NCBI GenBank assembly: GCA_019118605.1
Contig: DWYP01000018.1
Span: forward strand, 1,102 to 65,101
Origin: Candidatus Alistipes faecavium
Lineage (GTDB): Bacteria > Bacteroidota > Bacteroidia > Bacteroidales > Rikenellaceae
Direction: 5' to 3'
Length of the DNA: 64,000 bases
Part shown: piece by piece, positions 43,557-59,733 of the stretch
How positions within the stretch are numbered: position 1 is the stretch's first letter
How the letters are laid out: every line of letters begins with the position of its first letter
Notes under the pieces: generated by a model
The model's database searches: none
Told to the model about the DNA's origin: nothing
The model's input: only the letters and a program-made list of their open reading frames with translations
Translations under genes and position numbers: made by a program

Positions 43557-43595
43557 GAAGCGGGAAGCCCGGCACATGCCGTGACTTCCCGCTTC
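43557..43595 (-). terminator. hairpin downstream of the lipocalin-like gene
   Basis: GAAGCGGGAAG (43557-43567) pairs with CTTCCCGCTTC (43585-43595), an 11-bp stem. There is no clear U-tract. Confidence 0.4.
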
Positions 43596-43651: not shown

Positions 43652-44152
43652 TTATTCTTCCTCCTCCTCGCCGGCGATCTCGTCCTTGTACTGGTCGAGG
43701 ATCTCCTGCGGAATATCGTCGCAGCGTTCGTAGATCGAGACATTCCCGGCGTCGTCGGTGGCGATCCACGTCATTCTATCCGCGTAGAGGTCGCGGATGA
43801 TGTAGCGACTCGTCCAGTCGCCGTTCTCGTAGTCGTACATGCCGCGGATGACCGAACCCAGCGATTCATCGGTGTAGAGGTTGTAGGAGCCCGTAATGCG
43901 TCGCGGGCCGAAACTGTCGAGGTTCTGGTAGATCGTGAAGGTGTTGCCGTCGCGGTACGCAAGCTCGAGGTAGACGTAGCTGCCTTCGGCCAGTTCGGCC
44001 CCGTTGTTCCAAGAGGCGAGCTTCCACGTGCCCGAGATGTTGTAGAGCGAGACCTCGAGTCCCGGATCTTCGTAGCTTTTGTCCTTCTCGCAGCCCGTGA
44101 ATGCGGTTGCGGCGAAGAGCAGCAGAAGGGTGGATTTCAGAAAATTTTTCAT
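43652..44152 (-). CDS. lipocalin-like lipoprotein
   Basis: 166 aa starting MKNFLKSTLLLLFAATAFTGC followed by EKDKSYED. Carries GTWKLASWNNG, typical of lipocalin-like beta-barrel proteins, and an acidic tail EEEEE. ATG confirmed at 44152. Confidence 0.72.
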   Translation of the reverse strand: MKNFLKSTLLLLFAATAFTGCEKDKSYEDPGLEVSLYNISGTWKLASWNNGAELAEGSYVYLELAYRDGNTFTIYQNLDSFGPRRITGSYNLYTDESLGSVIRGMYDYENGDWTSRYIIRDLYADRMTWIATDDAGNVSIYERCDDIPQEILDQYKDEIAGEEEEE

Positions 44153-44166
44153 ATCGTTGTCAATTG

Positions 44167-44994
44167 TTATTCGCGTTGTTTCGTGTTGTCGCTGTCGGCG
44201 CCGATGCGGACGGTGATGCTGCTCTGCAGCGGGGAGAGCCCCAGCCCCTTCAGCACGACCGGAACCCGCTGCGGGACGCGTCCTTCCGAGGGTACGAAGC
44301 GGACGATCAGTTCGCCCAGCCTTCCGGGAGCGAGCTCCGCGGGCGAGAACTCCGCCTCGATGCAGGGGGGCAGCAGATTGCCGTCGACCCGGATCCGGAG
44401 CGTATCTTTCCCGCCGTTGAGGCATTCGATGCTTTCGGCCTGCAGAACCCCTCCGTTGAAGCGTATCTCCTCCTGCTTGAGCAGCAGCGAACCCCGGGCG
44501 TGGGGATAGGCGTAGGTCGGGTGCGTCGAGGGGACGACCTGCCCCGCGAGTACGAGTACCGCCGTGGGAGCCTTGTCCGAGAGCTGCGTGAAGAGGAAGA
44601 TCTTACGCTGGAAACGCCCCGGATGCCCTTTCGGGTGGTAGGTCACCGTGAAGGTGCGCGTCTGCCCGGGCAGCACCGGCTGCCGGTCGTATTCGGTCAC
44701 GGCGCATCCGCAGGTGGTACCCGTGCGGGTGATGACCAGCGGCTGTTCCCCGGTGTTCCGCCACCGGAACGTGAAGCTTTTCGGCCCGTCGTCCTCGCCG
44801 ATGTCGCCCGTGTCGATGTGCGTCGTCTCGAAGCGCATCGCTCCGGATCCCGGCGCCAGCGCGGGGTTGGCAAGACTGTCGAGCCGCTCGCGGGGAATCG
44901 TGCGGATCTGGCCGCGGGCCGGGGCGGCGGCCAGAAGTACCGCTGCCGCCCCGAGCACGGGCAGAATGTTCCGTATGACTCCTCCGAACCGCAT
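44167..44994 (-). CDS. DUF1573 domain protein (two Ig-like modules), secreted
   Basis: Carries HIDTGDIGEDDGPKSFTFRWRNTGEQPLVITRTGTTCGCAV...FTVTYHPKGHPGRFQRKIFLFT, the DUF1573 hallmark with the C-G-C motif. Confidence 0.83.
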   Translation of the reverse strand: MRFGGVIRNILPVLGAAAVLLAAAPARGQIRTIPRERLDSLANPALAPGSGAMRFETTHIDTGDIGEDDGPKSFTFRWRNTGEQPLVITRTGTTCGCAVTEYDRQPVLPGQTRTFTVTYHPKGHPGRFQRKIFLFTQLSDKAPTAVLVLAGQVVPSTHPTYAYPHARGSLLLKQEEIRFNGGVLQAESIECLNGGKDTLRIRVDGNLLPPCIEAEFSPAELAPGRLGELIVRFVPSEGRVPQRVPVVLKGLGLSPLQSSITVRIGADSDNTKQRE

Positions 44995-45003
44995 CTCCCC
45001 AGA

Positions 45004-47103
45004 TCAGAGCCAGCCGCTGCCGTTCGCCGACTTGCGCACGGTGATGTTGAACGTATGCGTCTGGTTGTTGCTGGCCGTGATCGAGGCGGTCGTGGCACCC
45101 TCGGCCACGCCGGTGAAGACGGCCTTCCCGTCCTTGATCTCTCCGGTGGCGATCGAGGAGTCGCCGATCTGGAGCGAGTAGGTCAGCGTCTCTCCGTCGA
45201 GGAAGTAGCGGGCGGGATCCTCCGTGACGGAGTTCTCGGCGCCGATTCCGAGGTAGATGTTCGGGAACGAGACGCTCGTTCCGGCCTGTTCGCCGGCCAC
45301 GGCCGACAGCAGCAGGTTGGCATCGGTCATGCCTCCGACGCATCCGTAATATTGCGAAAGAGGTACGCTCACATACCGGGTTTTGCCGATCTCCGTAACG
45401 TAGGAATAGTAGTATTTCGTGCCGACCTGATATTCGTCGATGGGCCTTACGCTGTTGACGAGCAGTTTGCGGAATTCGGCGGCCTTGAAGTGCTTGCGCA
45501 GCTGTGCGGCATAGGAGAGGCCCAGGGCGGCGACACCCGAAACATGCGGGCAGGCCATCGACGTACCCTCCATATAACCGTATCCGGTGTCGTTGCTTAC
45601 CTGCGGGGGCAGCGTCGAGAGCACGCAGCCGACGGATCCGACCTGATGGTCGTCGTCGTAGAACTCGAAATAGTAGTCCTGGTCGCCTCCCGGCGCCGAG
45701 ATGTCGGTAAAGGTTCCGTAGTTCGAGAAGGTCGAGATCGTGTAGTCGGGGGCCGTGGCGTTCACAGAGACGCAGTACTCGGCGGCTCCGGGGAAACCTC
45801 CGGCTGCGGCGTACTCGTTCCCCGAGGCGAAGATCGGGATGCCGCCCTCGATCGGGCCGTTGGGCGATCCGGCATTGTAGACGAAGTAGTCGAGCGCAGC
45901 CTTCTCCAGCGGGCAGTACTGCTCCCACTCCTCTTCGGTGGCGAATCCCGGGGTGTTCTCGTATCCGTTTGCGGCGCTCGAGGTGTATCCCCAGCTGCAC
46001 TGCAGGATGACGGCCCCGTTGTCGGCCGCATACTTGATGGCGCGTACCAGACTGATGGAGTTGCTGGCGGAGTTCCCCGAGAAGATCTGGCACGACATGA
46101 CCTTGACTCCGGGATTCTGCTCCGTACCTCCGGCGATCGAGGCGATGCCGATGCCGTTGTTGTTGCGCGCGGCGATGACGCCTGCCACGTGCGTGCCGTG
46201 GCCCGTATCGGCCGAGGCGTCGCACGAGATGACTCCCGTATTGTCGATGAAGTTGTATCCGTAGTAGTCTCCGGCGTATCCGTTTCCGTCGTTGTCGGTA
46301 TGCGAGGCGTAGGTCTCCTTCTCATTCACCCACATGTTGGCCTGAAGATCGGGATGGCGCCAGTAGATTCCTTCGTCGAGGACGGCCACGACGATCGACG
46401 GATCGCCCGTCGAACGCTCCCAAGCCTTTTCGCAGTTGATGTCCGCGCCGGCGACGAATTTCTTCTTGCCGACTTCGGCATCCTCGTCGGGGCCGATCAC
46501 GTAATCGGCCAGATAGCCCCGGTTGATGATGTGCCACTGCCATTTGAGCAGCTGGTCGTTGTAGACGTATCCGTTGGCGCCGTCGGCCCGGGTGACGGGC
46601 CCTTCGAGCAGGTTCCGCGAGATCGGAATGGCCTTGCGGTCGGTGCGGTACGCCCGCTTGACGGTGCGGTTGGGCGTCGCGGTCTGAACCTCTCCGAGCT
46701 GCGAAAGCCGGGCAATGACCTCGTCCACGGTGTAGGCATCGCTGAAACGTACCACATACCACAGGTGCAGTCCGGCCTCGCGCGTGCGCGCCTCGTGCTG
46801 TGCATCCACCGGGAAGATGCGCTCCAGCTCGCAGTCACCGAGCAGGTCGAGCACCTCGTCGACCGAAAGGATTCCCGAGCGCGTCGCAGCGGCGCCGCTG
46901 CGGGTCTTGGCAAGCCCCCGTTCGTCGAGGATGTCGCTGACGTAGGGCGAGAATTTCACGACAACTTCCCCTGTCATCTCGGTCGGCTCCGAGCCGCTTT
47001 CCGGCGCCTGGGGCGTCGGCTCGGCAATCTTTTCGGAGCAGGCACTGAAGGCGATCAGCGACAGGGCGCTGAAGGCCGTTAAAAGATATTTGTTCATTTT
47101 CAT
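45004..47103 (-). CDS. S8 (subtilisin) family serine peptidase lipoprotein
   Basis: Catalytic triad contexts are VAVLDEGI (Asp), HGTHVAGVIAA (His) and GTSMACPHVSGVAAL (Ser). Lipobox is IAFSAC. The C-terminus has a Big_2-like Ig module. Confidence 0.92.
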   Translation of the reverse strand: MKMNKYLLTAFSALSLIAFSACSEKIAEPTPQAPESGSEPTEMTGEVVVKFSPYVSDILDERGLAKTRSGAAATRSGILSVDEVLDLLGDCELERIFPVDAQHEARTREAGLHLWYVVRFSDAYTVDEVIARLSQLGEVQTATPNRTVKRAYRTDRKAIPISRNLLEGPVTRADGANGYVYNDQLLKWQWHIINRGYLADYVIGPDEDAEVGKKKFVAGADINCEKAWERSTGDPSIVVAVLDEGIYWRHPDLQANMWVNEKETYASHTDNDGNGYAGDYYGYNFIDNTGVISCDASADTGHGTHVAGVIAARNNNGIGIASIAGGTEQNPGVKVMSCQIFSGNSASNSISLVRAIKYAADNGAVILQCSWGYTSSAANGYENTPGFATEEEWEQYCPLEKAALDYFVYNAGSPNGPIEGGIPIFASGNEYAAAGGFPGAAEYCVSVNATAPDYTISTFSNYGTFTDISAPGGDQDYYFEFYDDDHQVGSVGCVLSTLPPQVSNDTGYGYMEGTSMACPHVSGVAALGLSYAAQLRKHFKAAEFRKLLVNSVRPIDEYQVGTKYYYSYVTEIGKTRYVSVPLSQYYGCVGGMTDANLLLSAVAGEQAGTSVSFPNIYLGIGAENSVTEDPARYFLDGETLTYSLQIGDSSIATGEIKDGKAVFTGVAEGATTASITASNNQTHTFNITVRKSANGSGWL

Positions 47104-47115
47104 AGCGTCAATTCG

Positions 47116-48885
47116 TTATCGGGTCGAAGAGTCCGAGGAATCCGAAGAATCCGAGGATGCGGAGTCGTCCTCCATGTTGGCAAGGTACTTCTTCGTGTAC
47201 TCCTGGTAGTAATAGTTCATGTTCGAGGGCACGTTGCTGAATCCTGCGAGGTTGCCTGCCTCGTCCTTACCCTCCTGGGAGAAGAACAGCGTGTAGGGGT
47301 CCCACCAGTCGAGCGCCGGATGCCAGAGAATCCAGTCGGGGAGCTTTCCGGTCAGACGGTTGAAGTTCAGGGCGAACATCTTCAGCTGCGGCATGACGCG
47401 CTTGACCGTAAGGAGCCTGCGGGGCAGCGTGTCGGCGCTGTTGGCGATGTCGGCCTCGGTATAGTAACCTACCGAAGAATCGTCCTCGAAGGAGGGGATT
47501 TCGCCCTGGAGATAGTTCACCGAGAGGATCAGCGTGTCGAGACCCGTCACGGCCTCCCCCTTCTTGTTGGTTCCGGGCTCCCAGCGGAGCAGCCGCGAGG
47601 GGAAGTCTCCGAACTCCTTGGTGTTGGGATCGTAGGCCGTCTCCTGGTAGAAGCCGCCGAAATTGGTCGAGATGTCGTTGCTCAGGTCATAGATCAGCCG
47701 ACGCTGGTTGTTCGCCATTTTCAGGACGTGCAGCTTCGGGAAGTTGTCGGGATTGATGATCTCGGGGATCTTCTCGAAGTTGTTGCTTCCCAGGTCGAGG
47801 TACTCGAGCTCCTTGAGGTTGGTGAAATCCTCGTGGAGGGAGGTAAGTCCGTATGCGCCGATGGTCAGACGCTTCAGGTGCTCCAGCTTGCAGATGTATT
47901 CGCCCGTGTCGAGGTTCAGCTGGAAGGTGTTGACGTTGCTGTAGAACTGCAGCTCCTCGGCGCCCGTCAGGTACTGCACCTCGAAGGGAAGCCCCTCCTT
48001 GGTCGAGAACATGAAGAAGCGTGCATACTTGACGCGTCCCTTCAGGGAGTCGACGTATCCGTCCATGCCCTCCTCCCAGAGGGTGACTCCGGACCAGTTG
48101 TCCATCTTCTCGCCCGAGCTTTCCCAGTTGGTGGCCCAGACGGCAAGCGAGCGGGCGATGCTGAGCAGCGCCACGGAGTCACCCTCGCGGGTGCCGCGCT
48201 TGATCTCCTCGGCGGCGTTCTGACGGATGGTCAGGTTGTCGTTCTGCGCGAGCATGTCGCTCGTTACGCCGCTGTCGGAGGTCGGGACGAACGTGATTTC
48301 GGCCGTGCGCTCCATGGGTACCGAGTTGATGCCCCAGGTGAAACGGACGGTAACCTCCCGGGGGCGCAGCCCGCGGTCGAGGTTCACGTCGAAGCGGTCG
48401 GTCTTGACCCAGTTTGCCACCTCGTCGGGAATCTTCACCTCGAAGTCCACGTTGGTCTTGACGCGTACGTCGAAATGCCGCTCGTCGAGCGAGGCGTAGT
48501 TTTCAATCGAGATTTCGGGTTCGTCGAGCGTGATGGCGTAGTCGAAGCCCTTCTGCTCGATCTTCACCTCCTGGTATTCGGCGCTGTTGTCGGATTTGGT
48601 GATACGCACGACGCCGCTGCGCACCTGGTTGGTGAGCGCCGAGTCGATGATCAGCCGACACTCCTTGCTGCCTTTTCCGTTGGCGGGCGAGACGGTGATC
48701 CAGGGCACGGACGCCGAGGCTACCCAGCTGTCGTTCGACGAAACCCGGATGCGTTCGGTGCCGCCTACGGCCTCGACGGTGAAGGTCTTGTTGTCGATGC
48801 CGAAGGAGTTGTTCTCGTCGTTCGTGCATCCGGACAGGGCGGCTGCGGCGAGAACCGATAATGCGATATAATTCCGTATTTTCAT
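47116..48885 (-). CDS. BACON-domain plus leucine-rich-repeat surface lipoprotein
   Basis: Lipobox ALSGC followed by TNDEN. Two BACON-like modules (SNDSWVASASVPWITVSP...). LRR units follow (LKELEYLDLGSNNFEKIP, LHVLKMANN, LDTLILSVNYLQGEIP). The tail is Ser/Asp-rich. Confidence 0.87.
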   Translation of the reverse strand: MKIRNYIALSVLAAAALSGCTNDENNSFGIDNKTFTVEAVGGTERIRVSSNDSWVASASVPWITVSPANGKGSKECRLIIDSALTNQVRSGVVRITKSDNSAEYQEVKIEQKGFDYAITLDEPEISIENYASLDERHFDVRVKTNVDFEVKIPDEVANWVKTDRFDVNLDRGLRPREVTVRFTWGINSVPMERTAEITFVPTSDSGVTSDMLAQNDNLTIRQNAAEEIKRGTREGDSVALLSIARSLAVWATNWESSGEKMDNWSGVTLWEEGMDGYVDSLKGRVKYARFFMFSTKEGLPFEVQYLTGAEELQFYSNVNTFQLNLDTGEYICKLEHLKRLTIGAYGLTSLHEDFTNLKELEYLDLGSNNFEKIPEIINPDNFPKLHVLKMANNQRRLIYDLSNDISTNFGGFYQETAYDPNTKEFGDFPSRLLRWEPGTNKKGEAVTGLDTLILSVNYLQGEIPSFEDDSSVGYYTEADIANSADTLPRRLLTVKRVMPQLKMFALNFNRLTGKLPDWILWHPALDWWDPYTLFFSQEGKDEAGNLAGFSNVPSNMNYYYQEYTKKYLANMEDDSASSDSSDSSDSSTR

Positions 48886-48899
48886 GATTCTGAAGGCTG

Positions 48900-51659
48900 T
48901 TATTCGAGCATGTCGGGGCAGTTGATGATATTCTGCGATTTATCGTATATGAGGTTGTAGGCTCCGGCCTGCCAGTAGTAGCAGATGTCCGAGGCATCGA
49001 ACGTGATGTTGGGGTTGTCGCTGATATCGAGGTTGTAGATCAGATAGGAGATCGTGTCGTCGATTTTGCGCAGGTCGTTCGAGCCCAGGAAGAGGCCGCG
49101 CAGTCCCGTGTGCTTGTAGATTCCCGTGGGCCACTCCTTCATGCAGCGTGCGCCGTTGGCGTCGCGCTGTCCGCGCACGGCGTAGACCGTGAGGCTCAGG
49201 GCGTCGGTCGGCTCCCAGGGGAACTTCGTGAAGGCGTTGTACGAAAGGTCCACGCCGTAGAGATAGGGCATGTTCCCGGCATGGAAGTCCTTGGGCAGCT
49301 CCTTGATCCGGTTGTATGTGAAGTCCAGCGAAATGAGGTTGGCCATGTTCTCGGGCTTCGCGCAGGTGAAGCAACCCTCTTCGAAGGACTCCAGGCCGTT
49401 TCCGCTGAGGATGATGTAGCTGATCTTCGAATTGCTCTTGGCCATGCATGCGGGGTACTCCTTGATCTGGTTCCCCGAGAGCGTGAAGGTGGTGACGTTG
49501 ATACCCTGGTAGGTGCCGTTGTCGGCGTTCTGGAACCGCTCGATCTTGTTGTATGCGAAGTTGGCCCCCGAGAGGTAGTAGGGGGAATTGCTGGTGAAGA
49601 TGTCGGGGACCTCCGTGAGGTTGTTGTACGACGCGGAGAAGGTCTCCAGGTTGTCGGTGTTGCAGAAGATCCGTCGACCGTTGACCTCGACCGTTCCGAA
49701 TCCCGTGATCTGGTTGTTGTCGAAATAGAGCTGTGCAGGCATGAAATCGTTGCCGAAGGACTCGATGACGCCCGAGATCTTGTTGTTCGACAGGTCGAGC
49801 AGTCCGAGCGACTCCATGCCGGCGATCTCCTTCGGGACGCTCGTCAGGTTGTTGTCGCGGGCGTAGAGCATCTGCACCACGTTCTTCGACTTCCCGGTGG
49901 CGATTCTTACGAGTGCGTCCCGGAGTTCGGTGTCGGTCCATCCGGGGATGGTGGCGGTTCCGGAGTTGCAGGAGATGTTCACCTGGATGAGCGCGGGCAT
50001 CTCGCCGATCGTCGCGGGCAGTCCGTGCATGTTGGGGCAGTTGTAGATCTCGAGCAGCGTGCACGACTTGAGGTGGCAGATCGAATCGGGGAGCATCTCG
50101 ATCGGGCTGTTGCCGATGTAGAGGTACTCGAGTTTCGAGAGGCGCCCGATGTCGTTGGGCAGGCTCAGGAGGTTGTTGCAGAAGCGTCCGGCGATTACAT
50201 CCTTCGGAGCGATCTGGCGGTGGCGTCCGGTTTTGCGGTCGATGAGCTGCTCCTCGGTGTAACCCTCCTCGTAGAGGCTCATCGCGGGGCTTGTGAGGTT
50301 ATGCTCCTTGAGCGCCAGGGCGCACGGATACGACATCTGCGGCATCGGGTGGATGGCCTGCAGATACTGCTTGTTGTACTCCAGACGGTTGCGGTTGCGC
50401 TCGGCGAGCGACTTCGACTGGTCGAGGGCCGGATCATACGTTCCGGTATTCATGTCGTTGTGCGTGCCGAGGTAGAGCTCCACCAGCTCGGTGAGCTGTC
50501 CGATGGCTGCGGGCATGTGTCCGCTGATGCCGAACTCGCTGAGGACGATCTTGGCCACGCGGCCGTTCGAGTGGATCTCGACGCCGGGCTGGTCGCTCCA
50601 CAGGTCGGGCGACTTGTTGAAATCCCAGTTGCAGCCCTTGTTGTAGTCCTGGCCGCCGTAGTACCAGTTGGGGCCGTCGAGCGCCTCCCAGATGGCCTTC
50701 AGCGCGTAGTTGTCTTTCATGTACTCGTCGGCCTCATAGAGTTTGACGGAGACCTTGGCATCGACGGTTTCGTTGTCCACGACCGTGAAGTTGCACGTCT
50801 CGGGAAGTTTGTCGGTGCAGGTTTCGAGCAGGGTCTTGTTGGCGTCGTAGGTCACGTAGCCGACGATCTCGTAGGTTCCCGCGGGCAGCGAGAAGAGCGA
50901 GTCGCAGGTGATCGACGAGGTCTGGTATCCGAACTCGTCGCTCTCGATGTCCTCCTCGTCGAAGTGGATGGAGAAGTCGGCCTTGAGATAGGTGTACGTG
51001 ATGTCCGGCTCGTCGGTGTTGACCTTGTGGATGGTCACGTCGAAATATTTGATCTCGTCGAAGGTGTATTCGCGGGTGCGGTCCGTGGCGCGCGTGGGCG
51101 CGGGGTCGTAACCCAAATGATCCTCATCGAATCCCTCGATGTTTTTTCTCAGGTTGAAGCGCACCTTTCCGCGGGGCGTAACCTTGGCCGTGAGGTCGTG
51201 TACGGTGAGGCCTCCGGCCACCACCTCGAGCTGGTAGTTCGCCGTGGTGCCGCGGTAGAGCTGTTCGTCGTTCACGTCGTAGAGAATGAACGTAACGATT
51301 TCATACGTGCCGGCCAGGAGCTGGATCTTGTCGCTTCGCAGGCCGAATTCGGCGCTTTCCTTGTCCGCATAGTTGAGCGTCATGGTTTGCGCGATGGTGG
51401 TGTTCCCCGACAGCAGACGGATTTCCAGTTTGCAGGCATCGGCCAGGTAGTCGAGTTCGTCCACGATGGCGCGGGTTCCGGCCTCGGCGGTCGCATCGGA
51501 CGGCATCTGGACGGCCCCTTCCTTGTAGAGCTTGAACTGTACGTATCCGTAGTCCTGCTCGCGGTTGTCGATTCCGTCATCGTTGGTGCAGGCTCCGGAG
51601 AACAGAACGGCCAGGCAGGCAACGGTGGCGAATATTGCTTTGTTTCTGAAAAGTTTCAT
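48900..51659 (-). CDS. large leucine-rich-repeat surface lipoprotein (Ig-like N-terminal modules plus about 15 LRRs)
   Basis: Lipobox LFSGAC followed by TNDDG. The N-terminal third has three repeated beta-sandwich-like modules. A long LRR array follows (LTELVELYLG, LSKLEYLYIGNSPIEMLP, LGLLDLSNNKISG, and others). Confidence 0.87.
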   Translation of the reverse strand: MKLFRNKAIFATVACLAVLFSGACTNDDGIDNREQDYGYVQFKLYKEGAVQMPSDATAEAGTRAIVDELDYLADACKLEIRLLSGNTTIAQTMTLNYADKESAEFGLRSDKIQLLAGTYEIVTFILYDVNDEQLYRGTTANYQLEVVAGGLTVHDLTAKVTPRGKVRFNLRKNIEGFDEDHLGYDPAPTRATDRTREYTFDEIKYFDVTIHKVNTDEPDITYTYLKADFSIHFDEEDIESDEFGYQTSSITCDSLFSLPAGTYEIVGYVTYDANKTLLETCTDKLPETCNFTVVDNETVDAKVSVKLYEADEYMKDNYALKAIWEALDGPNWYYGGQDYNKGCNWDFNKSPDLWSDQPGVEIHSNGRVAKIVLSEFGISGHMPAAIGQLTELVELYLGTHNDMNTGTYDPALDQSKSLAERNRNRLEYNKQYLQAIHPMPQMSYPCALALKEHNLTSPAMSLYEEGYTEEQLIDRKTGRHRQIAPKDVIAGRFCNNLLSLPNDIGRLSKLEYLYIGNSPIEMLPDSICHLKSCTLLEIYNCPNMHGLPATIGEMPALIQVNISCNSGTATIPGWTDTELRDALVRIATGKSKNVVQMLYARDNNLTSVPKEIAGMESLGLLDLSNNKISGVIESFGNDFMPAQLYFDNNQITGFGTVEVNGRRIFCNTDNLETFSASYNNLTEVPDIFTSNSPYYLSGANFAYNKIERFQNADNGTYQGINVTTFTLSGNQIKEYPACMAKSNSKISYIILSGNGLESFEEGCFTCAKPENMANLISLDFTYNRIKELPKDFHAGNMPYLYGVDLSYNAFTKFPWEPTDALSLTVYAVRGQRDANGARCMKEWPTGIYKHTGLRGLFLGSNDLRKIDDTISYLIYNLDISDNPNITFDASDICYYWQAGAYNLIYDKSQNIINCPDMLE

Positions 51660-51702: not shown

Positions 51703-51736
51703 AACGGAGCCCCGCCCCATTCAACGGGGCTCCGTT
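51703..51736 (-). terminator. intrinsic terminator after the BACON lipoprotein gene
   Basis: AACGGAGCCCCG pairs with CGGGGCTCCGTT, a perfect 12-bp stem with a 10-nt loop. On the minus strand the stem runs into TTTT. Confidence 0.6.
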
Positions 51737-51752: not shown

Positions 51753-53435
51753 TTAGTAGTTGCGTACGCAGACGATGCGGCCGACAACGTTGGAACCCTG
51801 ATAGAGCGCGATGGTACCCTTGACTCCGGTTTCGCACGGGTTGACATTCATGCTGACAACCATGCTGGTCTTACCGGGCATATCGGACCATGACTCTGCG
51901 TCGAGCCATTTCGCATCGAGATATTCCTCGCTGACTCCGATAAAGGTGTAGTCGAACGAACCCTTGATGGACAGTATGATGCTGCCGCCCTCGCAGCCTT
52001 CAGTGTTGTAGGTCAGGCGGTAGATGGGCACTCCGTTCATGAACTCGTCGCCGAAATTCATCAGGTAATCGTCCTCATAGAAGTAGTTCTCCGAGTCGAT
52101 GACCTCCCATTTGGCGCTGCCGTTGTCGAACATGTGCTGGGAGCCGGCGTTGGGGCTGATCGAGAATCCGCTCACGCTGCTGCTGGCGCCGTCCTGCGTG
52201 ATCGAGGCGTAGACATACTGTTTGTACTCCTCCTTGATGTCCGTACCAGCATCGTTAAACAGGTCGTAATCGGGGTCCGTGATATTGGCAGCGACGGTCT
52301 GCGGCAGGGCGAGCAGGGTGGCCGTGCGCTCCTCTCCGGTATTGGCCGCAACACTCACCGTGTAGGTGTGCTGCTGGAACACTCCGCCGTTTTCATCCCA
52401 CGTATCCTCGATCGTTACCCAATCGGTCAGGTAATACCACTGTTCGCGGAGATCGACCGCGTAGATCTTGAGTCCCTTGGTGCTGGAAACGGTGGTCGAG
52501 AGGTTGTCGTAGAGGGTCTCGTCGCTTCCCAGCGACTGGCTGACGTACTTGCCGTCGGCATTGAACGTGAAGGTCGCATTCATGTCCGAATACGGGAAGC
52601 GGATCAGGTCGCGGAATGCGGGAATCGACACGCAGTATTTGTTGTGCGCGTTGTTGCCGGGATCCTCGTTCTTGTCGATGGAGGCGTCGTAGAAGTCGAT
52701 CACACCTACGGCACCGTCCTGGTTCTCTTCGGTGAGGCTGGCGGTTACCACTACCTGATAGGCGCCGTCCTCGTCGGCGATGGCCGTCGGGGTTACCTCG
52801 AGCCACGAGGGTGCCGAAGCGAGCCAGTCGAAGTTGCTCTTGCTCTTGAACGTGTACGTGTAGCTTCCGACGCGGAGCGGCCACTTGAGCTCGATGGTGC
52901 CTTCGGGAGCGGTCTCCGGCGTCTCGGTGCCGGTGTACTTCGTCATGGCCGTTTCCGAATACTCGTAGGGAATGACGAAGTCGTCCTCATTCGTGTCGTA
53001 GGCCGAAGCGTAGAACTCGAACTCGCGGATGGCCGCTGCGCGGCTGATCTTCGCGATGATCTGGGACTCTCCGCCCATGGTGAGCGACACCTCGCAGGTC
53101 GGGGCGTCGTCGAAGGCTTCCTGTTCGGTCGTGGCGACCGTGACGGTCACGGGCGAGGTGCTGGCCTTGCCGGAGATCGAGCTGACAGGCATCTCACCGT
53201 CGCGCAGCTCGAACCACTTGGAGGTCTCGGCATCGGTGGGGATGCTGACCGTCCAGTCGAGGTTCGGAGTGAAGGTGACATCACACGACGTCTCTCCGAC
53301 CTGGATCGTCAGGTTCTGAAGTTCCGGGAATACGGGAGGGGTATTCTCTTCTGCCTCGGACGTATCACAGGCTGTGGACAGCATGGCGGCGCTGACCAGC
53401 AGAGCCGATGTCCAATGTAGAATCATTCTTTTCAT
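51753..53435 (-). CDS. surface lipoprotein with BACON-like modules, function unknown
   Basis: MKRMILHWTSALLVSAAMLSTAC followed by DTSEAEE. Repeated segments resemble BACON (TFTPNLDWTVSIPTDAETSKWFEL and FKSKSNFDWLASAPSWLEVTP). The track start at 53447 is also possible. Confidence 0.8.
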   Translation of the reverse strand: MKRMILHWTSALLVSAAMLSTACDTSEAEENTPPVFPELQNLTIQVGETSCDVTFTPNLDWTVSIPTDAETSKWFELRDGEMPVSSISGKASTSPVTVTVATTEQEAFDDAPTCEVSLTMGGESQIIAKISRAAAIREFEFYASAYDTNEDDFVIPYEYSETAMTKYTGTETPETAPEGTIELKWPLRVGSYTYTFKSKSNFDWLASAPSWLEVTPTAIADEDGAYQVVVTASLTEENQDGAVGVIDFYDASIDKNEDPGNNAHNKYCVSIPAFRDLIRFPYSDMNATFTFNADGKYVSQSLGSDETLYDNLSTTVSSTKGLKIYAVDLREQWYYLTDWVTIEDTWDENGGVFQQHTYTVSVAANTGEERTATLLALPQTVAANITDPDYDLFNDAGTDIKEEYKQYVYASITQDGASSSVSGFSISPNAGSQHMFDNGSAKWEVIDSENYFYEDDYLMNFGDEFMNGVPIYRLTYNTEGCEGGSIILSIKGSFDYTFIGVSEEYLDAKWLDAESWSDMPGKTSMVVSMNVNPCETGVKGTIALYQGSNVVGRIVCVRNY

Positions 53436-53497
53436 AAGGCATTGCATTTTAGAACTATAATTAAAGAGAATGGGGATTTATGATGTTTGCATTGCGA

Positions 53498-54448
53498 TTA
53501 TTCCGGTCTTTGCGGAATGCGTGCCCCCGACATATTCTCTTCCTCCTTGAGCCGTATGGCCTCCTCGAGCGACACCCACTCCAGGATGTTGTAGTAGTTG
53601 CCTACGGCGCCCACCATGTTGCCCATGTCCTTGAGGTAGACATAGAGCCAGATGGTGGCGTAACGCTGGCAGGTGTTGTAATAGGAGTCGTAGTAGGGGC
53701 TCACGGTACCCAGGATCTTGTCGTCGGCATTGATCTGTCCGAAAACCGTCTGCTCGTCGCTCAGCACCTGATCTTCATCCATCTCCACGAGCGGTTCGGC
53801 CGGATCGTCCGTATTCAGCCGCATCGTCACGTCGTATCCGTCATAGAGGAAGTCGCGCAGGATGATCGTGTTCGGCTCCGTGGGGTGCTTCTCGGTGAGG
53901 ATCAGCCGCTGATAGCTCGTATCCAGGGCGCTGGGGTAGTCGTAGAGCAGCAGCGAGGTCACCACGCACCATCCGGTGAAGGTCTCCGGGTCGTACGGAC
54001 ATCCTTTGTAAAGAACGACTTTCGTCTTGTCGTAATCGGTATAGAGATTGCTCCAGTTCAACTGATCGGGCATCACCAGCTTGAGGATGAATCCCAGCGA
54101 ATCGGTGTCCTGGATATGATCGTAGCTGCCTGCCACCTCGACATTGGCGGTTCGTTCCCCGGCCTTGATGGTGATCGTGTTGGAGCGCAGGCGGTAGTGA
54201 TATCCCTCGATGGCCGTGCTTCCCTTGTCGATCACCTCGACGCCGATCGTACGGTCGTAGTCGCACGCCACGGTCGAGGCGATCGGAATGTTGAAATAGG
54301 CCTCGTCCTGGAATACCATGTTGGTCGACATCGTGTCGGCGAACAGAATGTATTCCGCGTCGGAATAGGTCTTTTCGTCCGAGTTACAACCCGTTGCGAG
54401 GATTCCCGTGAATCCGGCCGCAAGCAGGAATGTGGTAATTCGTCTCAT
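53498..54448 (-). CDS. DUF4843-like lipoprotein
   Basis: Lipobox ILATGC. Lies immediately after susD, as DUF4843 genes usually do. Carries DRTIGVEVIDKGSTAIEGYHYRL. The family name needs an HMM check. Confidence 0.72.
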   Translation of the reverse strand: MRRITTFLLAAGFTGILATGCNSDEKTYSDAEYILFADTMSTNMVFQDEAYFNIPIASTVACDYDRTIGVEVIDKGSTAIEGYHYRLRSNTITIKAGERTANVEVAGSYDHIQDTDSLGFILKLVMPDQLNWSNLYTDYDKTKVVLYKGCPYDPETFTGWCVVTSLLLYDYPSALDTSYQRLILTEKHPTEPNTIILRDFLYDGYDVTMRLNTDDPAEPLVEMDEDQVLSDEQTVFGQINADDKILGTVSPYYDSYYNTCQRYATIWLYVYLKDMGNMVGAVGNYYNILEWVSLEEAIRLKEEENMSGARIPQRPE

Positions 54449-54475: not shown

Positions 54476-55987
54476 TTAGTTGTTGCTTTCGTTGGGCTCG
54501 ATTTCCGAACCGGGGGCTTCCAGTTCGTGGCGCGGGATGGGCCATACGAAGCGCGGGTCGTCGGCCTCGATCTTGAGCGAGCTGCCCTCGGGAAGCGAGC
54601 ACGACTGGGGCGTGCGTTCGAATCCCATGTGCCAGCGCTTGAGGTCGTTGAGACGGAATCCCTCCATGTAGAGCTCGCGGACGCGCTCCTCGGAGATCGT
54701 CTCCTTCCAGTTGCTCTGGCTGACGGTGACGGCTCCGGCGCCGCCGCTGAAGCGCTTCGTGCGCAGGGCGGTGAGGTCCTTGCTGGCCGCCGAGTAGTTC
54801 GGCGTCGGGAGGTTGCAGTAGGCCTCGGCGCGGATCAGGTACTGCTCGGCCAGGCGGAACAGCTTGGGCATCGACACCATGTAGATGTTCGCCGAGGAGA
54901 TGAAGTTCCGGTTTCCGAAATACTTGATCAGAAGGGGCCATGTCAGGCCGTTGGCATATCCCGTCGTGTACTGGTAGAAATAGGCGTTGTAGCGCAGGTC
55001 GTTGGAGGTGTAGGAGTTGAGCACCCACTCTGCCGGAACGTAGTCGGGATAGGTGTAGGTATAGTCGCGGTTCGAGTTGAGGAACACCTGCCCGAGGGCG
55101 CCTCCGTAGGAGGTCGTCGTGAAGCCGATCTTCCAGATGATCTCGAAGCTCGAGTCATAGTTCCACATGTAGGTGAGGTAGGTGTCGGTCTCCGAATAGT
55201 TGACCGTGCCGTCGGCGAGCTTGAAGACATCGTTCTCGATGACCTTCGTCGCATAGTCGATGGCCGTCTGCCAGTCCTGCATGTAGAGCGCCACGCGGGC
55301 ATGCAGCGCCTGGGCGGCGGCCGCGGTGGCGTAGATCGTATTGTACTGGTCGTAGTCGTTGTCGAGCAGCGATTCGGCCATCTTCAGGTCGTCGAGGACG
55401 AACTGGTAGGAGGCCTTGAGCGAGGCGCGTTTCATGGGTTCGGGCTCGGAATACTTCGAGCGCAGCACCACGCCGAGTTCCTTGTCGGCCGTTTCGGGAT
55501 CGTAGGCCTTGCAGAAGCACTCGAGGAGTTTCGAGTAGCAGAGTGCGCGGACCGTGTAGATCTCGCCGGTGTACATGTCGAGGTAGTCGATGTTGTCGAC
55601 GTCGGTCTCCTGGGCCTTCACCTGGTCGACGCGCTCGAGGAAGAAGTTGCATCGTCCGATGATGGCGTAGAGTCCGGCATAGACGGATTCTACGTCGGTG
55701 TCGGTGGAGAGGATGTTCCAGAGCCAGGCGGGACCGTATGTATTCGAGAAGTCCTCGACGGCATAGGCCAGGTCGGCCTGGATGTCGGGCATGACGGTGA
55801 GGGTCCCGCTGAAGAGCGAGCTGCTTTTCAGTCCGGCATAGATTCCGGTCAGGATCTGTTCCGCGTCTTCGAAGGTCTGCATGGCCTCGCCTTCGGGGAT
55901 GGCCGATTCGGGCAGTTTGTCGAGACACGACGAGGTCGCGCCTACCAGCAGCATTGCGGCGATAAGGGTTTTTATATTTCGTAACAT
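54476..55987 (-). CDS. susD: SusD/RagB family outer-membrane lipoprotein
   Basis: MLRNIKTLIAAMLLVGATSSCLDKLPESAI, helical SusD-like body, C-terminal RWHMGFERT...WPIPRHELE. The track start at 55999 is TTG, so I prefer the ATG at 55987. Confidence 0.9.
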   Translation of the reverse strand: MLRNIKTLIAAMLLVGATSSCLDKLPESAIPEGEAMQTFEDAEQILTGIYAGLKSSSLFSGTLTVMPDIQADLAYAVEDFSNTYGPAWLWNILSTDTDVESVYAGLYAIIGRCNFFLERVDQVKAQETDVDNIDYLDMYTGEIYTVRALCYSKLLECFCKAYDPETADKELGVVLRSKYSEPEPMKRASLKASYQFVLDDLKMAESLLDNDYDQYNTIYATAAAAQALHARVALYMQDWQTAIDYATKVIENDVFKLADGTVNYSETDTYLTYMWNYDSSFEIIWKIGFTTTSYGGALGQVFLNSNRDYTYTYPDYVPAEWVLNSYTSNDLRYNAYFYQYTTGYANGLTWPLLIKYFGNRNFISSANIYMVSMPKLFRLAEQYLIRAEAYCNLPTPNYSAASKDLTALRTKRFSGGAGAVTVSQSNWKETISEERVRELYMEGFRLNDLKRWHMGFERTPQSCSLPEGSSLKIEADDPRFVWPIPRHELEAPGSEIEPNESNN

Positions 55988-56004
55988 GGTTGTCGTCAAT
56001 CGTT

Positions 56005-58953
56005 TTAGAACATGAGGTCGAGGCCGAAGGTGAATTGCCGCGACATGGGGTACTGGGCCTGGTACATGTTGCCCACGCCTTCGGGGTCGAGACCCGAGAA
56101 CTTGGTGAACGTCAGCAGGTTCTGCGCCTGGGCATAGATTTTCAGGCCGCTGATGAACCGGGTCTTGCGGATCAGTTCCTCGGGGAATGTGTAGCTGATC
56201 ATGAGGTTCTTCAGACGCAGGAAGGAGGCATCTTCGAGCAGCCGGTCGTCGAATTCGGTATAGACGCCGTGGCGGGGGATGTCGGTGTTGTCACCGGGCT
56301 GTTTCCAGCGGTCGAGCAGGCGTCGCGACTGGTTGTAGGTGCTGAACCGGCCGTTCGATTCGTCGAAGTAGTGGTCGTTGTTCATCATCCAGCGGTCGGC
56401 GACCCAGGAGAACTGCGCCGAGAGGGAGATTCCCTTCCAGGCGAGGGTCGTCCCGAAGCCTCCGGCCCAGGGGGCGTTCATGCTTTTCCCGACGAGGACC
56501 TTGTCTTCGTCGCGCATTTCGGTGGTTATTTCGCCGTCCTTGGTGTACCAGAGGGCGTCGCCGTTGGCGGGGTTCACGCCGGCGAAGCGGTTGACGTAGA
56601 ACTCTCCGGAGTCGTGTCCGACGACGAGTTTCATCGACGTGGCGGCCATTTCATACTCCTGTACGCCGTTGTAGAGCTCGACGATCTTGTTTTTGTTGTA
56701 GGAGACGTTTGCGTTGAGCGACCACATGAAGCCCTTGGTTGCGACGACCGTACCGGAGAGGTTGATTTCGGCGCCGCGGTTGACCATCACGCCGATGTTG
56801 TCCCAATAGTATCCGTAACCCTTGTAGGCGTAGGACTGGGGCACCTGCATGAGCATGTCGGTGGTGCGTTTGTTGTAGAGTTCGAGGTCGACGTTGAGCC
56901 GGTTCCAGAATCCGAGGTGGAAGGCGAGGTTCGTGGTCCAGAGCTTCTCCCACCCGAGGTCCTCGCTGGCGGGCTGGCTGGGGGCCATACCGGCATTGCC
57001 GTAGTAGTCGAGGCCTCCGCTCACGAGGGCCAGGTGCACGTAGTTGTTCGGTACGGAGGAGTTGCCCGAGGTACCGGTGCTGACGGCGATCTGGGCGTTG
57101 GTGAGCCAGCGCCGTGCCCCCTCCATGAAACCTTCGTTGCGGAGGTTCCACATGAAGCCCAGGGACCAGAATCCGGCCCAGCGGCGGTTGGCGCCGAAGC
57201 GCGACGAGGCGTCGGCACGGATCGAGAAGTCGGCATAGTAGCGGTCGTCGTAGTTGTACTCGCCACGCCCGAAGAACGAGAGGTAGGCATAGTCGTTGTC
57301 GGTGGTGTCGAGCCACGACGAGGTGCGGGTACCGGAGGAGATATTGACGAGTTTGTCGTTGTTCTGGCCTTCGGTGAGGATCGAGAAGTCCTCGTAGTGG
57401 TAGTCGAGGCCCTCCTGGCCGAGGAGGAAGTTGAAGGCGTGCTTGCCGTTTACGCGGAACTGGTAGTTCAGGGTATTGGTGACCGAGAGCGTGAGGCCGT
57501 CGGTGGACATGCGCTGGGCGCTTCCTTCGCCGAGGTTGGGGGCATAGCTCGGGGTGGAGGAGCCGAACCCGGTCATGTGGGTGTAGTCGACGTTGAACTG
57601 CGACTTGAAGGTCAGGCCGTCGATGATGGTCGCTTCGGCGAAGAGGCTCGACACGAGTTTGTATTTCTTGTATTCGCGGCGGTTGTTTTCGAGCCATTCG
57701 ATGGGGTTCTGCCCGTCTCCGAGCCAGGAGCCGTCATTTACCGAAGCGAGCGATCCGTCGGGACGATACGGGTTCCAGTAGGGGAGCATGAAGCGGGCCG
57801 CGGAGATCGGGGTGACGAGCCTGTATTCGCCGTCGTCGGCCTGCTCGATGTTCTGGTAGTTGAGCATGGTGTTGGTCCCGATCTTGAGCCACTTTGCGGC
57901 GCGCTGTTCGATGTTGGCGCGGATGGAGTATCGGTCGAAGTCCGATCCCAGGGCGATACCCTCCTGGCTGTAATATCCTCCCGAGACGTAATAGTTGGTC
58001 TTCTCGGTGGCTCCCGACACGGAAACCTCGTAGTTCTGAAGCATGGCGGCGTTGTTGTACACCTCGTCGAGCCAGCAGATGTCGGTCTTGCTCAGCAGGT
58101 CGTAGTCCTTGCCGGTCGTCAGGCCGATCTCCTTTTCATACTGGATGCGCTCGGCGGTGTTCATCAGGTCCCAGTTTCCCTTTGCCAGCTGCGAGAAACC
58201 CAGTTGCATGCGGTATGTGATGTTGGGTTTCGAGGCCATCTGTCCGCGCTTGGTGGTGATTACCACCACGCCGTTTGCGGCGCGGGCTCCGTAGATCGAG
58301 GTCGACGAGGCGTCCTTGAGCACCGAGATCGACTCGATGTCGGCGGGGTTGATGGCGTTGAAGTCGGCGCTGGAGATCGCCACGCCGTCGAGGATGAAGA
58401 GCGGGGCGGTTCCGGAGTTGATCGAGTTGGTGCCTCGGATGCTGAGGGTGGCGGCCACGCTGGGCTCACCCGAGCTGGAGAGGACCGTCAGGCCGGGGAC
58501 CTGACCCTGGAGGGCCTGATCGAAGGCTGCCGTGGGGGTGCTTTCGATCTTTTCGGCCTTCACGGTCGAGACGGACCCTGCGATGGTACCCTTTTTGCGG
58601 ACGCCGTAGGCGATGACCACCACGTCGTCGAGGGCCTGTGCTTCGGGCTGGAGTTCGACGTCGTGGGTTACGGTGGAGGCGCCGTCGGGCACGGTGAATT
58701 CTACGACTTGATAACCGATGTAATGATAGGTTAGGGTAGTGCCGGGAGTTACGGCGATGACATACGACCCGTCGACGAGTGTACTGACGCCGCTGTTGTT
58801 CCCGGAAATCACATGTACGCCGATCAGAGGTTGTTTATCCTCTGCGGATGTGACGACTCCGCTGACCGTGACGGTTCCCCCCCCCTGAGCAAGGGCAGGT
58901 AGAGAACACATCAGGAAAGCGAATTTCAGGAGTAGAAATTTAGTTTTTTGCAT
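56005..58953 (-). CDS. susC: SusC/RagA TonB-linked outer-membrane transporter (no STN domain)
   Basis: 982 aa. Signal peptide, carboxypeptidase-regulatory-like domain, TonB box DDVVVIAYG, plug (IESISVLKDASSTSIYGARAANGVVVITTKRG), barrel, ends FGLDLMF. Confidence 0.93.
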   Translation of the reverse strand: MQKTKFLLLKFAFLMCSLPALAQGGGTVTVSGVVTSAEDKQPLIGVHVISGNNSGVSTLVDGSYVIAVTPGTTLTYHYIGYQVVEFTVPDGASTVTHDVELQPEAQALDDVVVIAYGVRKKGTIAGSVSTVKAEKIESTPTAAFDQALQGQVPGLTVLSSSGEPSVAATLSIRGTNSINSGTAPLFILDGVAISSADFNAINPADIESISVLKDASSTSIYGARAANGVVVITTKRGQMASKPNITYRMQLGFSQLAKGNWDLMNTAERIQYEKEIGLTTGKDYDLLSKTDICWLDEVYNNAAMLQNYEVSVSGATEKTNYYVSGGYYSQEGIALGSDFDRYSIRANIEQRAAKWLKIGTNTMLNYQNIEQADDGEYRLVTPISAARFMLPYWNPYRPDGSLASVNDGSWLGDGQNPIEWLENNRREYKKYKLVSSLFAEATIIDGLTFKSQFNVDYTHMTGFGSSTPSYAPNLGEGSAQRMSTDGLTLSVTNTLNYQFRVNGKHAFNFLLGQEGLDYHYEDFSILTEGQNNDKLVNISSGTRTSSWLDTTDNDYAYLSFFGRGEYNYDDRYYADFSIRADASSRFGANRRWAGFWSLGFMWNLRNEGFMEGARRWLTNAQIAVSTGTSGNSSVPNNYVHLALVSGGLDYYGNAGMAPSQPASEDLGWEKLWTTNLAFHLGFWNRLNVDLELYNKRTTDMLMQVPQSYAYKGYGYYWDNIGVMVNRGAEINLSGTVVATKGFMWSLNANVSYNKNKIVELYNGVQEYEMAATSMKLVVGHDSGEFYVNRFAGVNPANGDALWYTKDGEITTEMRDEDKVLVGKSMNAPWAGGFGTTLAWKGISLSAQFSWVADRWMMNNDHYFDESNGRFSTYNQSRRLLDRWKQPGDNTDIPRHGVYTEFDDRLLEDASFLRLKNLMISYTFPEELIRKTRFISGLKIYAQAQNLLTFTKFSGLDPEGVGNMYQAQYPMSRQFTFGLDLMF
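58877..58885 (-). repeat. homopolymeric G9 tract inside the susC coding sequence
   Basis: Nine consecutive C on the + strand, so G9 on the sense strand, at CDS nt 69-77 (codons Q23-G26, ...LALAQGGGT...). Confidence 0.95.
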
Positions 58954-59633
58954 AGTGAAATTACTTTCTGACGCTGCAAAAGAAGGGATTTTCCATGATT
59001 AAAACAAGCCCGGTTTTGTGCCGGAATGTAAGCGGTTCGGAGGATATCCGCGGCTCGGGGGTGTTTTTTAAATTATTTAAGATGTTGATTTGTAGAGTAT
59101 TGGTATATTTGTTACGAATTGTAATCACGATGGGGTCAAAAAAGTAAAAAAAGTTCGCCGAAAAGGCCATTTTGGGCGTCGAACTGTTATGTTTTTTCGA
59201 CTCCGGAGGCCGGAGACCGGACTGGAAGGAGCCGGAAACGACTGCCGGACGAAGGAGACCCGGAAGGGGCTTTGAAGTGCGGAAATCGGCCTTGTAAGGC
59301 CATATAATGCCGATTTCGGGCTTTTGTGCCCTGCTTTGGCCCCGTTTGCAAGGTTCTGCTATTGAACTTTTTCGGCGTGATTTGTCGGGGAAGTGTCGAA
59401 TGGAAATATTATGTGTTTCGAAACTTACAGATTGTAAGCATATGGCATTTCGATGCTATCAAAATGGAAATTTCAGGGCCTTCGGAACTCTTCCGGAATG
59501 CCCGGCTTGCCGACCGTTTTGAAAACTTTTTGGAGGGGTTTCGTTTTCAACTTCGATGGGGACATCCGAACCCGCTCCGCCCATCGCAAAACCTCCGCCC
59601 GCTCTTGGCTCCTGTTCCCCGAAAAGGAGGCCC

Positions 59634-59676
59634 CTTCCGATCCTGCCTCCCTTCCGATCCTGCCTTCCGATCCGGC
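59634..59676. repeat. three tandem CTTCCGATCC(T/G)GC units
   Basis: Units at 59634, 59651 and 59664. They are followed by the inverted repeat CGGCTCCGG...CCGGAGCCG, which encloses a C9 run (59682-59690). Confidence 0.8.
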
Positions 59677-59733
59677 TCCGGCCCCCCCCCGATCCGGCCC
59701 CGGAGCCGCTCTCCGACCGCTCCTCCCGGCACC

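Follow-up and report, generated by a model that had tools for sequence, protein, structure and literature searches.

The DNA analysed in this work, a stretch of 64,000 nucleotides (nt) from contig DWYP01000018.1 of Candidatus Alistipes faecavium (assembly GCA_019118605.1; called the window below), carries nine genes on the minus strand, the first of which encodes a transporter of the SusC/RagA type and the last a small lipocalin-like lipoprotein. An earlier reading, made from the letters alone without database searches (the sequence-only reading), had drawn attention to the five distal genes. These code for two leucine-rich repeat (LRR) lipoproteins, a subtilase of family S8, a DUF1573 protein and the small lipoprotein, and it had been suggested that their products form a surface complex, which recognises a protein or glycoprotein, cleaves it and possibly feeds the adjacent SusC/D pair.

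Gene content and layout of the locus

The first gene (56005..58953) encodes a TonB-dependent transporter of 982 amino acids (aa) with the Pfam domains CarboxypepD_reg_2, Plug and TonB_dep_Rec_b-barrel and without an STN domain. It is followed by the genes of a 507-aa SusD/RagB-family lipoprotein (54476..55999; SusD-like_3 and SusD_RagB), of a 316-aa DUF4843/DUF4984 accessory lipoprotein in position 3 (53498..54448; DUF4984, E 3.5e-42), and of a 564-aa BACON-containing lipoprotein in position 4 (51753..53447; BACON, E 1.9e-7). The distal half of the locus comprises the genes of a 919-aa LRR lipoprotein (48900..51659), a 589-aa BACON-LRR lipoprotein (47116..48885), a 699-aa lipoprotein subtilase (45004..47103; Peptidase_S8_N and Peptidase_S8, E 2.4e-41), a 275-aa DUF1573 protein (44167..44994; E 3.8e-28) and a 166-aa small lipoprotein (43652..44152), whose classification relies on its AlphaFold2 model and on the linkage of its gene to that of the subtilase. 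The gaps between these five genes are 14, 12, 9 and 14 nt, in agreement with the earlier description. The start of the small lipoprotein is the ATG at 44152 (MKNFLKSTLLLLFAATAFTGC...), which gives the 166-aa product; the longer, 257-aa open reading frame (ORF) spanning 43652-44425 overlaps the DUF1573 gene, and 44425 is not the real start of the fifth gene.

Between the two halves of the locus there is a GC-rich hairpin followed by UUUU (51703..51736, minus strand; 12-bp stem, -32.1 kcal/mol, z -5.65), which may be an internal terminator or an attenuator. The sequence-only reading had called it an intrinsic terminator, and the hairpin was found again. The hairpin on the 3' side of the last gene (about 43557..43595, minus strand; -37.2 kcal/mol, z -5.94), identified by its folding energy, is also real, though no U-tract follows it. 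The gene adjoining the downstream end of the locus is ffh. A scan for sigma-70-type promoters and terminators yielded 8 terminator-like sites, with 8.5 expected, and was uninformative for Bacteroidales. The region upstream of susC (58954-60811) includes about 780 bp of spacer in which no ORF is credible, and the long overlapping ORFs there at 59326-60597 (plus strand) and 59459-60811 (minus strand) have no Pfam match.

The Pfam searches refined several of the domain assignments proposed earlier. In the 919-aa protein the long LRR array is present (LRR_10, LRR_8/LRR_4), but in place of three Ig-like modules two DUF4458 domains could be verified. The 589-aa protein has the LRRs and the Ser/Asp-rich C-terminal tail attributed to it, but one BACON domain above threshold, not two. 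The double-Ig architecture of the DUF1573 protein holds for one DUF1573 domain (residues 53-151), the second copy being weak (E 0.086). In the S8 product the Asp/His/Ser triad is intact as described, and the model shows a C-terminal beta-sandwich that has no Pfam match.

The subtilase is the sole enzyme that Pfam recognises among the nine genes. No glycoside hydrolase, lyase or esterase domain was detected in them, and none of the regulators looked for (a pair of extracytoplasmic function sigma and anti-sigma factors, a hybrid two-component system or SusR) adjoins the nine window genes. Having neither a carbohydrate-active enzyme (CAZyme) nor a linked regulator, the locus is not a polysaccharide utilisation locus (PUL) in the strict sense.

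Conservation of the gene order

Of 24 genomes sampled from the same genus, 16 have a full-length orthologue of the subtilase (46-75% identity), as does one genome of another family. In the approximately 19 kb around each of these genes the order SusC, SusD, DUF4843/4984, BACON protein, 919-aa LRR protein, 589-aa LRR protein, S8, DUF1573, small lipoprotein was identical in all cases, down to 35-47% identity. A scan with an alignment of the 919-aa protein against a collection holding one genome per species gave at least 555 relatives, and the best 80 loci were fetched; their records carry the names Alistipes, Tidjanibacter, Rikenellaceae, Bacteroidales and Cryptobacteroides. The order was unchanged in all 80. 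All nine genes were present in 59 of them, six lacked only a detectable fourth gene, and the remaining incomplete loci were cut at contig ends. Thus, in the total of 99 related loci (80 + 19) each deviation comes either from the end of a contig or from a fourth gene whose divergence puts it beyond detection. The 589-aa gene always stands directly after the 919-aa gene, and the DUF4984 gene is found in all related loci with enough flanking sequence.

The synteny of the five distal genes is therefore kept in all these loci, including that of the other family, but they do not form the self-contained operon originally envisaged: they are the distal half of a nine-gene locus and always come after SusC-SusD-DUF4984-BACON. 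The link to SusC/D, for which the sequence-only reading had used the word 'possibly', is stronger than that, since the four transporter-half genes precede the five in every locus with enough flank. The ffh neighbour is retained in the closest relatives only, which indicates that the nine genes move as a block.

Among the relatives the first two junctions have median gaps of 9 and 18 nt; the median is 48 nt in front of the fourth gene, 97 nt in front of the 919-aa gene and 12-16 nt within the five-gene half. A hairpin of -20 kcal/mol or lower precedes the 919-aa gene in 42 of 78 related loci, hence the internal terminator or attenuator is a frequent but not a universal feature.

When the six closest loci were left out, the median identities to the window proteins were 70% for SusC, 60% for SusD, 55% for DUF4984, 50% and 49% for the 919-aa and the 589-aa LRR proteins, 52% for S8, 35% for DUF1573 and 46% for the small lipoprotein. 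The BACON lipoprotein of position 4 (51753-53447) had a median identity of 27%, compared with 49-70% for its neighbours, and is the variable position of the locus. This fast-evolving protein may be the specificity determinant of the locus.

Of 201 genomes sampled evenly across the order, four contained the 919-aa family. One of these, a complete genome of 4.87 Mb from another family (G053), carries the complete array of nine genes, position 4 being taken by a DUF5003 protein. Another (G110) has two loci with the order SusC, SusD, DUF4984, BACON, DUF4458-LRR, BACON-LRR and a third DUF4458-LRR gene, and without S8. The G110 loci indicate that the LRR pair belongs to the transporter and that the protease is an optional addition, which is at variance with the view that the LRR proteins simply serve the protease for recognition. 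The closest complete genome (3.27 Mb in one contig; locus G004:C1:2372876-2391966) has its orthologous SusC broken up into four frames, an internal TAG in the S8 match and a BACON-LRR frame that continues into S8; these disruptions represent either decay of the locus or indel errors of the assembly.

The encoded proteins and the subtilase partner

Among the PDB sequences the best match of the window SusC was RagA of Porphyromonas gingivalis (6sli_B, E 3.2e-168, 565 bits over the full barrel). The scores with other solved SusC proteins were 378 and 320 bits for the dextran and levan types and 122 bits for BT2264 of Bacteroides thetaiotaomicron. RagAB imports oligopeptides (bioRxiv 10.1101/755678). 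The likeness to RagA is the main sequence argument for a peptide cargo, which it suggests without being conclusive. The match of SusD to RagB (61.6 bits) was just under those to three structural-genomics SusD proteins (63-70 bits), and the DUF4984 protein had no sequence relative in the PDB.

The 919-aa protein matches PDB 4ECN (E 2.6e-148), which we take to be the LRR protein BT_0210 of B. thetaiotaomicron, and 4ECO, both of them products of structural genomics. It has at least 2468 relatives in the databases; its best 120 matches were all close Alistipes relatives and included no named Bacteroides protein. The comparison of the LRRs with BspA-like adhesins is an analogy only: the repeats fall outside the BspA-type LRR family, for which there was no match at E values up to 0.01, and Pfam assigns them to LRR_8, LRR_4, LRR_1, LRR_14 and LRR_10. 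The lipobox Cys, noted earlier together with acidic residues in four of the five distal proteins, is conserved in essentially all orthologues of these four lipoproteins, and in those of the DUF4984 and BACON proteins as well, with Asp/Glu enriched at positions +2 to +4 after the Cys. In Bacteroidota, acidic residues after a lipobox have been described as a lipoprotein export signal, so judged by their N-termini these lipoproteins look surface-directed.

The catalytic residues of the subtilase (D243, H302 and S515, in subtilisin order) and the oxyanion residue N429 are invariant in 76 orthologues, and from its sequence the enzyme looks catalytically competent. In the AlphaFold2 model (predicted local distance difference test, pLDDT, 86.8; predicted template modelling score, pTM, 0.88) a beta-alpha-beta-beta-alpha-beta domain (residues 42-147) is followed by a linker, the catalytic domain (about 220-560) and a C-terminal beta-sandwich (about 610-690). 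Foldseek aligned approximately 450 columns of the model with the mature subtilases deseasin MCP-01, mirolase and AprV2, and approximately 600 columns with pro-Tk-subtilisin, pro-subtilisin E, EpiP and SUB1. The longer alignments with the pro-forms suggest that the N-domain (about 42-152) is an I9-like propeptide. This domain ends in the conserved motif N-R-T-I/V-K-R-A-Y152, and by analogy with the propeptide end of subtilisin BPN' the K-R-A-Y152 motif is likely the autoprocessing site. The lipobox Cys22 is N-terminal to this putative propeptide and separated from it by a linker, thus processing of the classical kind would detach the mature enzyme from its lipid anchor. We also considered whether the subtilase might be cargo of the type IX secretion system; this was rejected because of its lipobox and because the searches showed no C-terminal sorting domain.

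Subtilases of this type occur in other arrangements, too. A genome of the same family but another genus (G162:C9:26000-48700) has nine tandem Peptidase_S8_N matches, eight full-length and one partial, in frames of 850-960 aa, and the lipocalin-like partner family has no member in this genome at E values up to 1e-5. In several Bacteroidales families Peptidase_S8_N is found in frames of 2300-2600 aa (G053:C1:4281200 and 567896, G089, G178, G187, G041 and G110:C3), a distinct and far bigger architecture for this type of subtilase.

The DUF1573 protein carries a signal peptide of type I but lacks a lipobox. Its Cys95-Gly-Cys97 motif is represented by CxC in 81 of 81 orthologues. The Gln at the mature N-terminus is conserved as well, and the sequence Q-I-R-(T/I)-I-P-(R/Q)-x-x-L-D-S directly after the cleavage site is retained across the orthologues, which suggests a functional N-terminal strand or a pyroglutamate end. 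There was a sub-threshold match to the NCBIfam OS_HP2 (seleno)protein model and no sequence relative in the PDB. CxC motifs can mimic protein disulfide isomerase, and we mention a redox role of the DUF1573 protein as a hypothesis only. The protein is absent from the paralogous S8 loci described below, which indicates that it goes with the LRR-type locus and not with S8.

The description of the small lipoprotein as lipocalin-like agrees with its AlphaFold2 model (pLDDT 90.7), an up-and-down barrel of eight strands with a C-terminal helix (helices at 149-165), and with its Foldseek matches, led by Blc, sandercyanin and Bla g 4 and including an uncharacterised protein of Bacteroides uniformis (2mhd) and potempin E of Tannerella forsythia, all of them at E values between 1e-3 and 1e-2. 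Pfam gave no hit at threshold (Lipocalin_4 scored 16.1 bits with a cut-off of 22.4, E 0.022), and a profile search of the PDB had 2mhd (E 0.015) as its only match, without any potempin. At E values up to 0.001, 765 representatives out of 1.84 billion belong to this small, unannotated family, which in the order-wide sample was found with this locus type only.

Six other Alistipes loci contain paralogues of the subtilase with the same architecture, and for 10 of these 13 paralogues the gene directly after is a small-lipoprotein homologue (hmmsearch E 1e-12 to 1e-21). Some of these loci are arrays of tandem S8-partner pairs, others have the order SusC, SusD, 800-aa lipoprotein, S8, partner. Counted over 25 genomes, 45 of 54 matches to the partner family lie within 1.5 kb of an S8 match, and 47 of 63 S8 matches have a partner-family match within the same distance. 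In some loci the lipocalin-like domain is the C-terminal module of a 490- to 835-aa surface lipoprotein encoded beside S8. Because its family sits beside S8 paralogues, we conclude that S8 has in the small lipoprotein a dedicated partner and not a generic fifth member of the operon, a relationship newly found here.

Some of these arrangements deserve separate description. Two loci (G010:C51:10000-29900 and G013:C16:6000-25900) have four tandem S8 lipoprotein genes after a unit of SusC, SusD and an 820-aa lipoprotein, and in each locus three of the four S8 genes are followed by a small-lipoprotein homologue of 153 to 169 aa. In a third (G020:C72:1380-3980) a lipoprotein of approximately 835 aa, with the lipocalin-like domain at its C-terminus and no assigned domain in the rest, ends 12 nt before S8. 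A lipocalin-S8 fusion, to which a long open frame had pointed, had been considered for the latter and was dismissed, the domain belonging to this separate lipoprotein.

Two roles of the partner can be envisaged, which we regard as about equally likely, each of them as a tentative proposal short of an even chance. By analogy with the potempins, small outer-membrane lipoprotein barrels that are co-transcribed with the peptidases they block (PMC9890683), the small lipoprotein might be a cognate inhibitor of S8 that protects the cell producing it. The tight pairing of its gene with those of the S8 paralogues and their duplication as pairs would fit such a role, as would the combination of a lipoprotein with an up-and-down barrel of eight strands, the presence of potempin E among the Foldseek matches (target-normalised template modelling score 0.66), and a 10-residue loop between strands 5 and 6 that carries a conserved G-D-W. 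However, the protein has no sequence similarity to any potempin and its fold matches potempin E no better than generic lipocalins; the potempin that inhibits a subtilase, PotC, has an oligonucleotide/oligosaccharide-binding (OB) fold and not an eight-stranded barrel (PMC9890683); and S8 would already carry its own inhibitory propeptide. The C-terminal fusion of the domain to surface lipoproteins beside S8 is explained at least as well by docking or tethering. The small lipoprotein may therefore instead be a membrane tether or adaptor that holds the mature subtilase after removal of the propeptide. Such a tether would be of use if classical autoprocessing frees the catalytic domain from the anchor at Cys22, and the protein, being a lipoprotein too, begins with a strongly acidic N-terminus of the export type. 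Here, the objections are that autoprocessing at K-R-A-Y152 was deduced by analogy only and that a propeptide which remains bound could itself act as the tether.

Known systems and the proposed function

The locus matches, as judged from annotations, a catalogued locus of B. thetaiotaomicron, BT0206-14, of which it appears to be the counterpart. BT0206-14 was described as one PUL without its own regulator (Martens et al. 2009, PMC2709373). The annotations are SusD and DUF4984 for BT0207-08, and BACON protein, S8 peptidase and DUF1573 for BT0211-13 (PMC10434189). Among 14 control genomes the combination of DUF4458 and Peptidase_S8_N was found in B. thetaiotaomicron only. As far as the literature lists the annotations, gene content and order are the same and a linked regulator is lacking in both; B. 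thetaiotaomicron belongs to a different Bacteroidales family, and the likeness was judged from published annotations. The counterpart supplies a name for comparison, not a mechanism, and we found in the literature neither a substrate nor a mechanism for a locus of the BT0206-14 type, nor an account of a locus composed of SusC, LRR and subtilisin genes or of a 'protein utilisation locus'. The sequence-only reading knew of no characterised system with this composition; the type had been catalogued, though no function had been assigned. Co-regulation with the Sus unit, which that reading required, is seen in B. thetaiotaomicron, where the nine counterparts respond together: in expression arrays the BT0206-14 genes rise in concert in a mutant of the anti-sigma factor BT3992, and the response needs the Sus-like proteins BT3983-88 (PMC2709373).

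RagAB of P. gingivalis (PDB 6sli, 6sm3) shares with the window locus a RagA-like SusC, a SusD/RagB lid lipoprotein and the lack of an STN domain, although the resemblance of the window SusD to RagB is distant. RagAB consists of two genes, and the gingipains that supply it are encoded elsewhere and secreted by the type IX system, whereas in the window the transporter is followed by seven accessory genes, including those of its own lipoprotein protease and of two LRR proteins. Another SusCD pair, in the four-component complex BT2261-2264 of B. thetaiotaomicron (PDB 5fq6-8), has two small lipoproteins encoded directly downstream in a locus without CAZymes. BT2264 is the distant relative of the window SusC mentioned above. 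The BT2261-2264 complex contains a bound peptide-like ligand.

In a glycan utilisome a SusC2D2 core is combined with a surface glycan-binding lipoprotein and a surface endo-enzyme. The levan and dextran utilisomes of Bacteroides (PDB 5t3r/6zaz, 8aa4) follow the same grammar as the window locus, i.e. susC, susD, binding lipoproteins and one endo-acting enzyme. Unlike them, the window locus encodes a serine endopeptidase instead of a glycoside hydrolase, its binding proteins would be LRR arrays, it has no sensor or regulator, and there is an extra protease-partner lipoprotein and a DUF1573 protein. Pairs of a protease and a small lipoprotein are known from T. forsythia, where a gene for a small outer-membrane lipoprotein barrel adjoins each KLIKK peptidase gene (PMC9890683). 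The potempins PotE and PotB are of the eight-stranded up-and-down type, as is the window protein, and the KLIKK subtilase mirolase is a detectable relative of the window S8. The potempin genes, however, lie upstream and the peptidases are type IX cargo, whereas the partner in the window locus type is usually downstream and the peptidase is a lipoprotein. In dentilisin of Treponema denticola (PrtP-PrcA-PrcB) a surface lipoprotein subtilase forms a complex with partner lipoproteins of the same operon, but these partners are unrelated to those in the window, there is no transporter, and the window S8 is not a member of the PrtP family.

We are inclined, with slightly better than even confidence, to read the nine genes as a RagAB-type locus for the capture and cleavage of proteins and the import of the resulting peptides. 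The two LRR lipoproteins, displayed on the surface, would capture a proteinaceous ligand, and the lipoprotein subtilase, made as a zymogen, would cut the captured ligand into oligopeptides. Import of the peptides across the outer membrane, by means of TonB, would be the task of RagA-like SusC, its SusD lid and the lipoproteins of the DUF4843/4984 and BACON types, possibly as parts of one complex. The small lipoprotein would either hold the mature subtilase at the membrane or restrain it as an inhibitor, which would protect the cell's own surface. The DUF1573 protein could be a periplasmic helper, possibly engaged in thiol-disulfide chemistry on the cargo or on the cysteine-capped LRR proteins.

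Several points weigh against such a function. RagA was the best match among only a few solved SusC structures, which does not prove a peptide cargo, and the window SusD resembles SusD proteins of unknown ligand at least as closely as it does RagB. The G110 loci lack S8, consequently proteolysis is not obligatory for this type of transporter. The hairpin and U-tract separate the SusCD half from the five distal genes, and the halves may differ in expression. BACON domains are usually associated with glycan-targeting proteins. Finally, a mutant of BT_0212 keeps its EspB-cleaving activity, the one proteolytic activity that was tested (PMC6282197).

Some of these points could also be accommodated by a locus for glycans or glycoconjugates, in which SusCD imports a non-peptide ligand, the LRR and BACON proteins bind it, and S8 matures lipoproteins of the same locus in a manner resembling PrtP-PrcA. 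BACON domains in two of the nine proteins and the absence of S8 from the G110-type loci would fit, and so would the finding that the B. thetaiotaomicron counterpart needs outer-membrane proteins encoded by the glycan PUL BT3983-88 for its expression (PMC2709373). The window S8 weakly resembles dentilisin PrtP, but its score with the NCBIfam model NF033595 (66.4 bits) is far below the cut-off of 300. Moreover, no CAZyme was found in or beside the nine genes in about 100 loci, which were examined against the nine query proteins, SusC is much nearer to RagA than to the solved glycan SusCs, and S8-partner modules also occur in tandem arrays and in SusCD loci without LRR genes, i.e. S8 is not tied to the processing of LRR proteins. 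We think that a glycan locus of this kind is unlikely.

A role in adhesion or host-microbe interaction, with the LRR proteins as adhesins, S8 degrading immunoglobulin, complement, mucin or collagen, and a secondary link to SusCD, appears similarly improbable. LRR arrays are protein-protein recognition modules, there were matches, well below threshold, to leptospiral LIC LRR proteins and to a fibronectin-binding LRR family, and the nearest solved relatives of S8 include the tissue-degrading deseasin MCP-01, AprV2/BprV of Dichelobacter nodosus and mirolase. However, the fixed position downstream of a RagA-like SusCD in about 100 loci fits nutrient capture and not a free adhesin, the repeats do not match the BspA-type family, and the LRR proteins evolve at an ordinary rate similar to that of S8 and are not hypervariable.

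The capture, cleavage and import of proteins can be extended to a bolder proposal, which we consider rather doubtful in its entirety. The locus could encode a 'proteolytic utilisome', which would be the first machine of the Sus type to have LRR lipoproteins in place of the glycan-binders for capturing folded proteins. Lipocalin-like proteins would be obligate partners, as inhibitors or membrane tethers, of its lipid-anchored pro-subtilases, and the Cys-Gly-Cys motif of the DUF1573 protein, an Ig-fold protein, would reduce or isomerise disulfides of the prey for cutting and import. If this were true, the dependence on BT3983-88 would mean that the bacterium eats the protein part of deglycosylated glycoproteins. 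To what had been catalogued, the present work adds the S8-partner module, the position of the lipid anchor before the putative propeptide, the invariant Cys-Gly-Cys of the DUF1573 protein, and the LRR loci without S8.

The acquisition of proteins and peptides by gut Bacteroidales is far less understood than that of glycans, and Alistipes is a protein-fermenting genus that has repeatedly been linked to diet and disease. If the proposed function is wrong, the locus is a widespread transporter whose cargo still has to be named. The locus is invariant across the sampled Rikenellaceae loci and is present in the genetically tractable B. thetaiotaomicron, thus the idea of a protein utilisation locus is directly testable. 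If it is right, the utilisome concept would extend from glycans to proteins, a role would be found for LRR lipoproteins that have had solved structures for years but no function, and there would be a new family of protease partners, possibly controlling surface proteolysis, which can affect host proteins.

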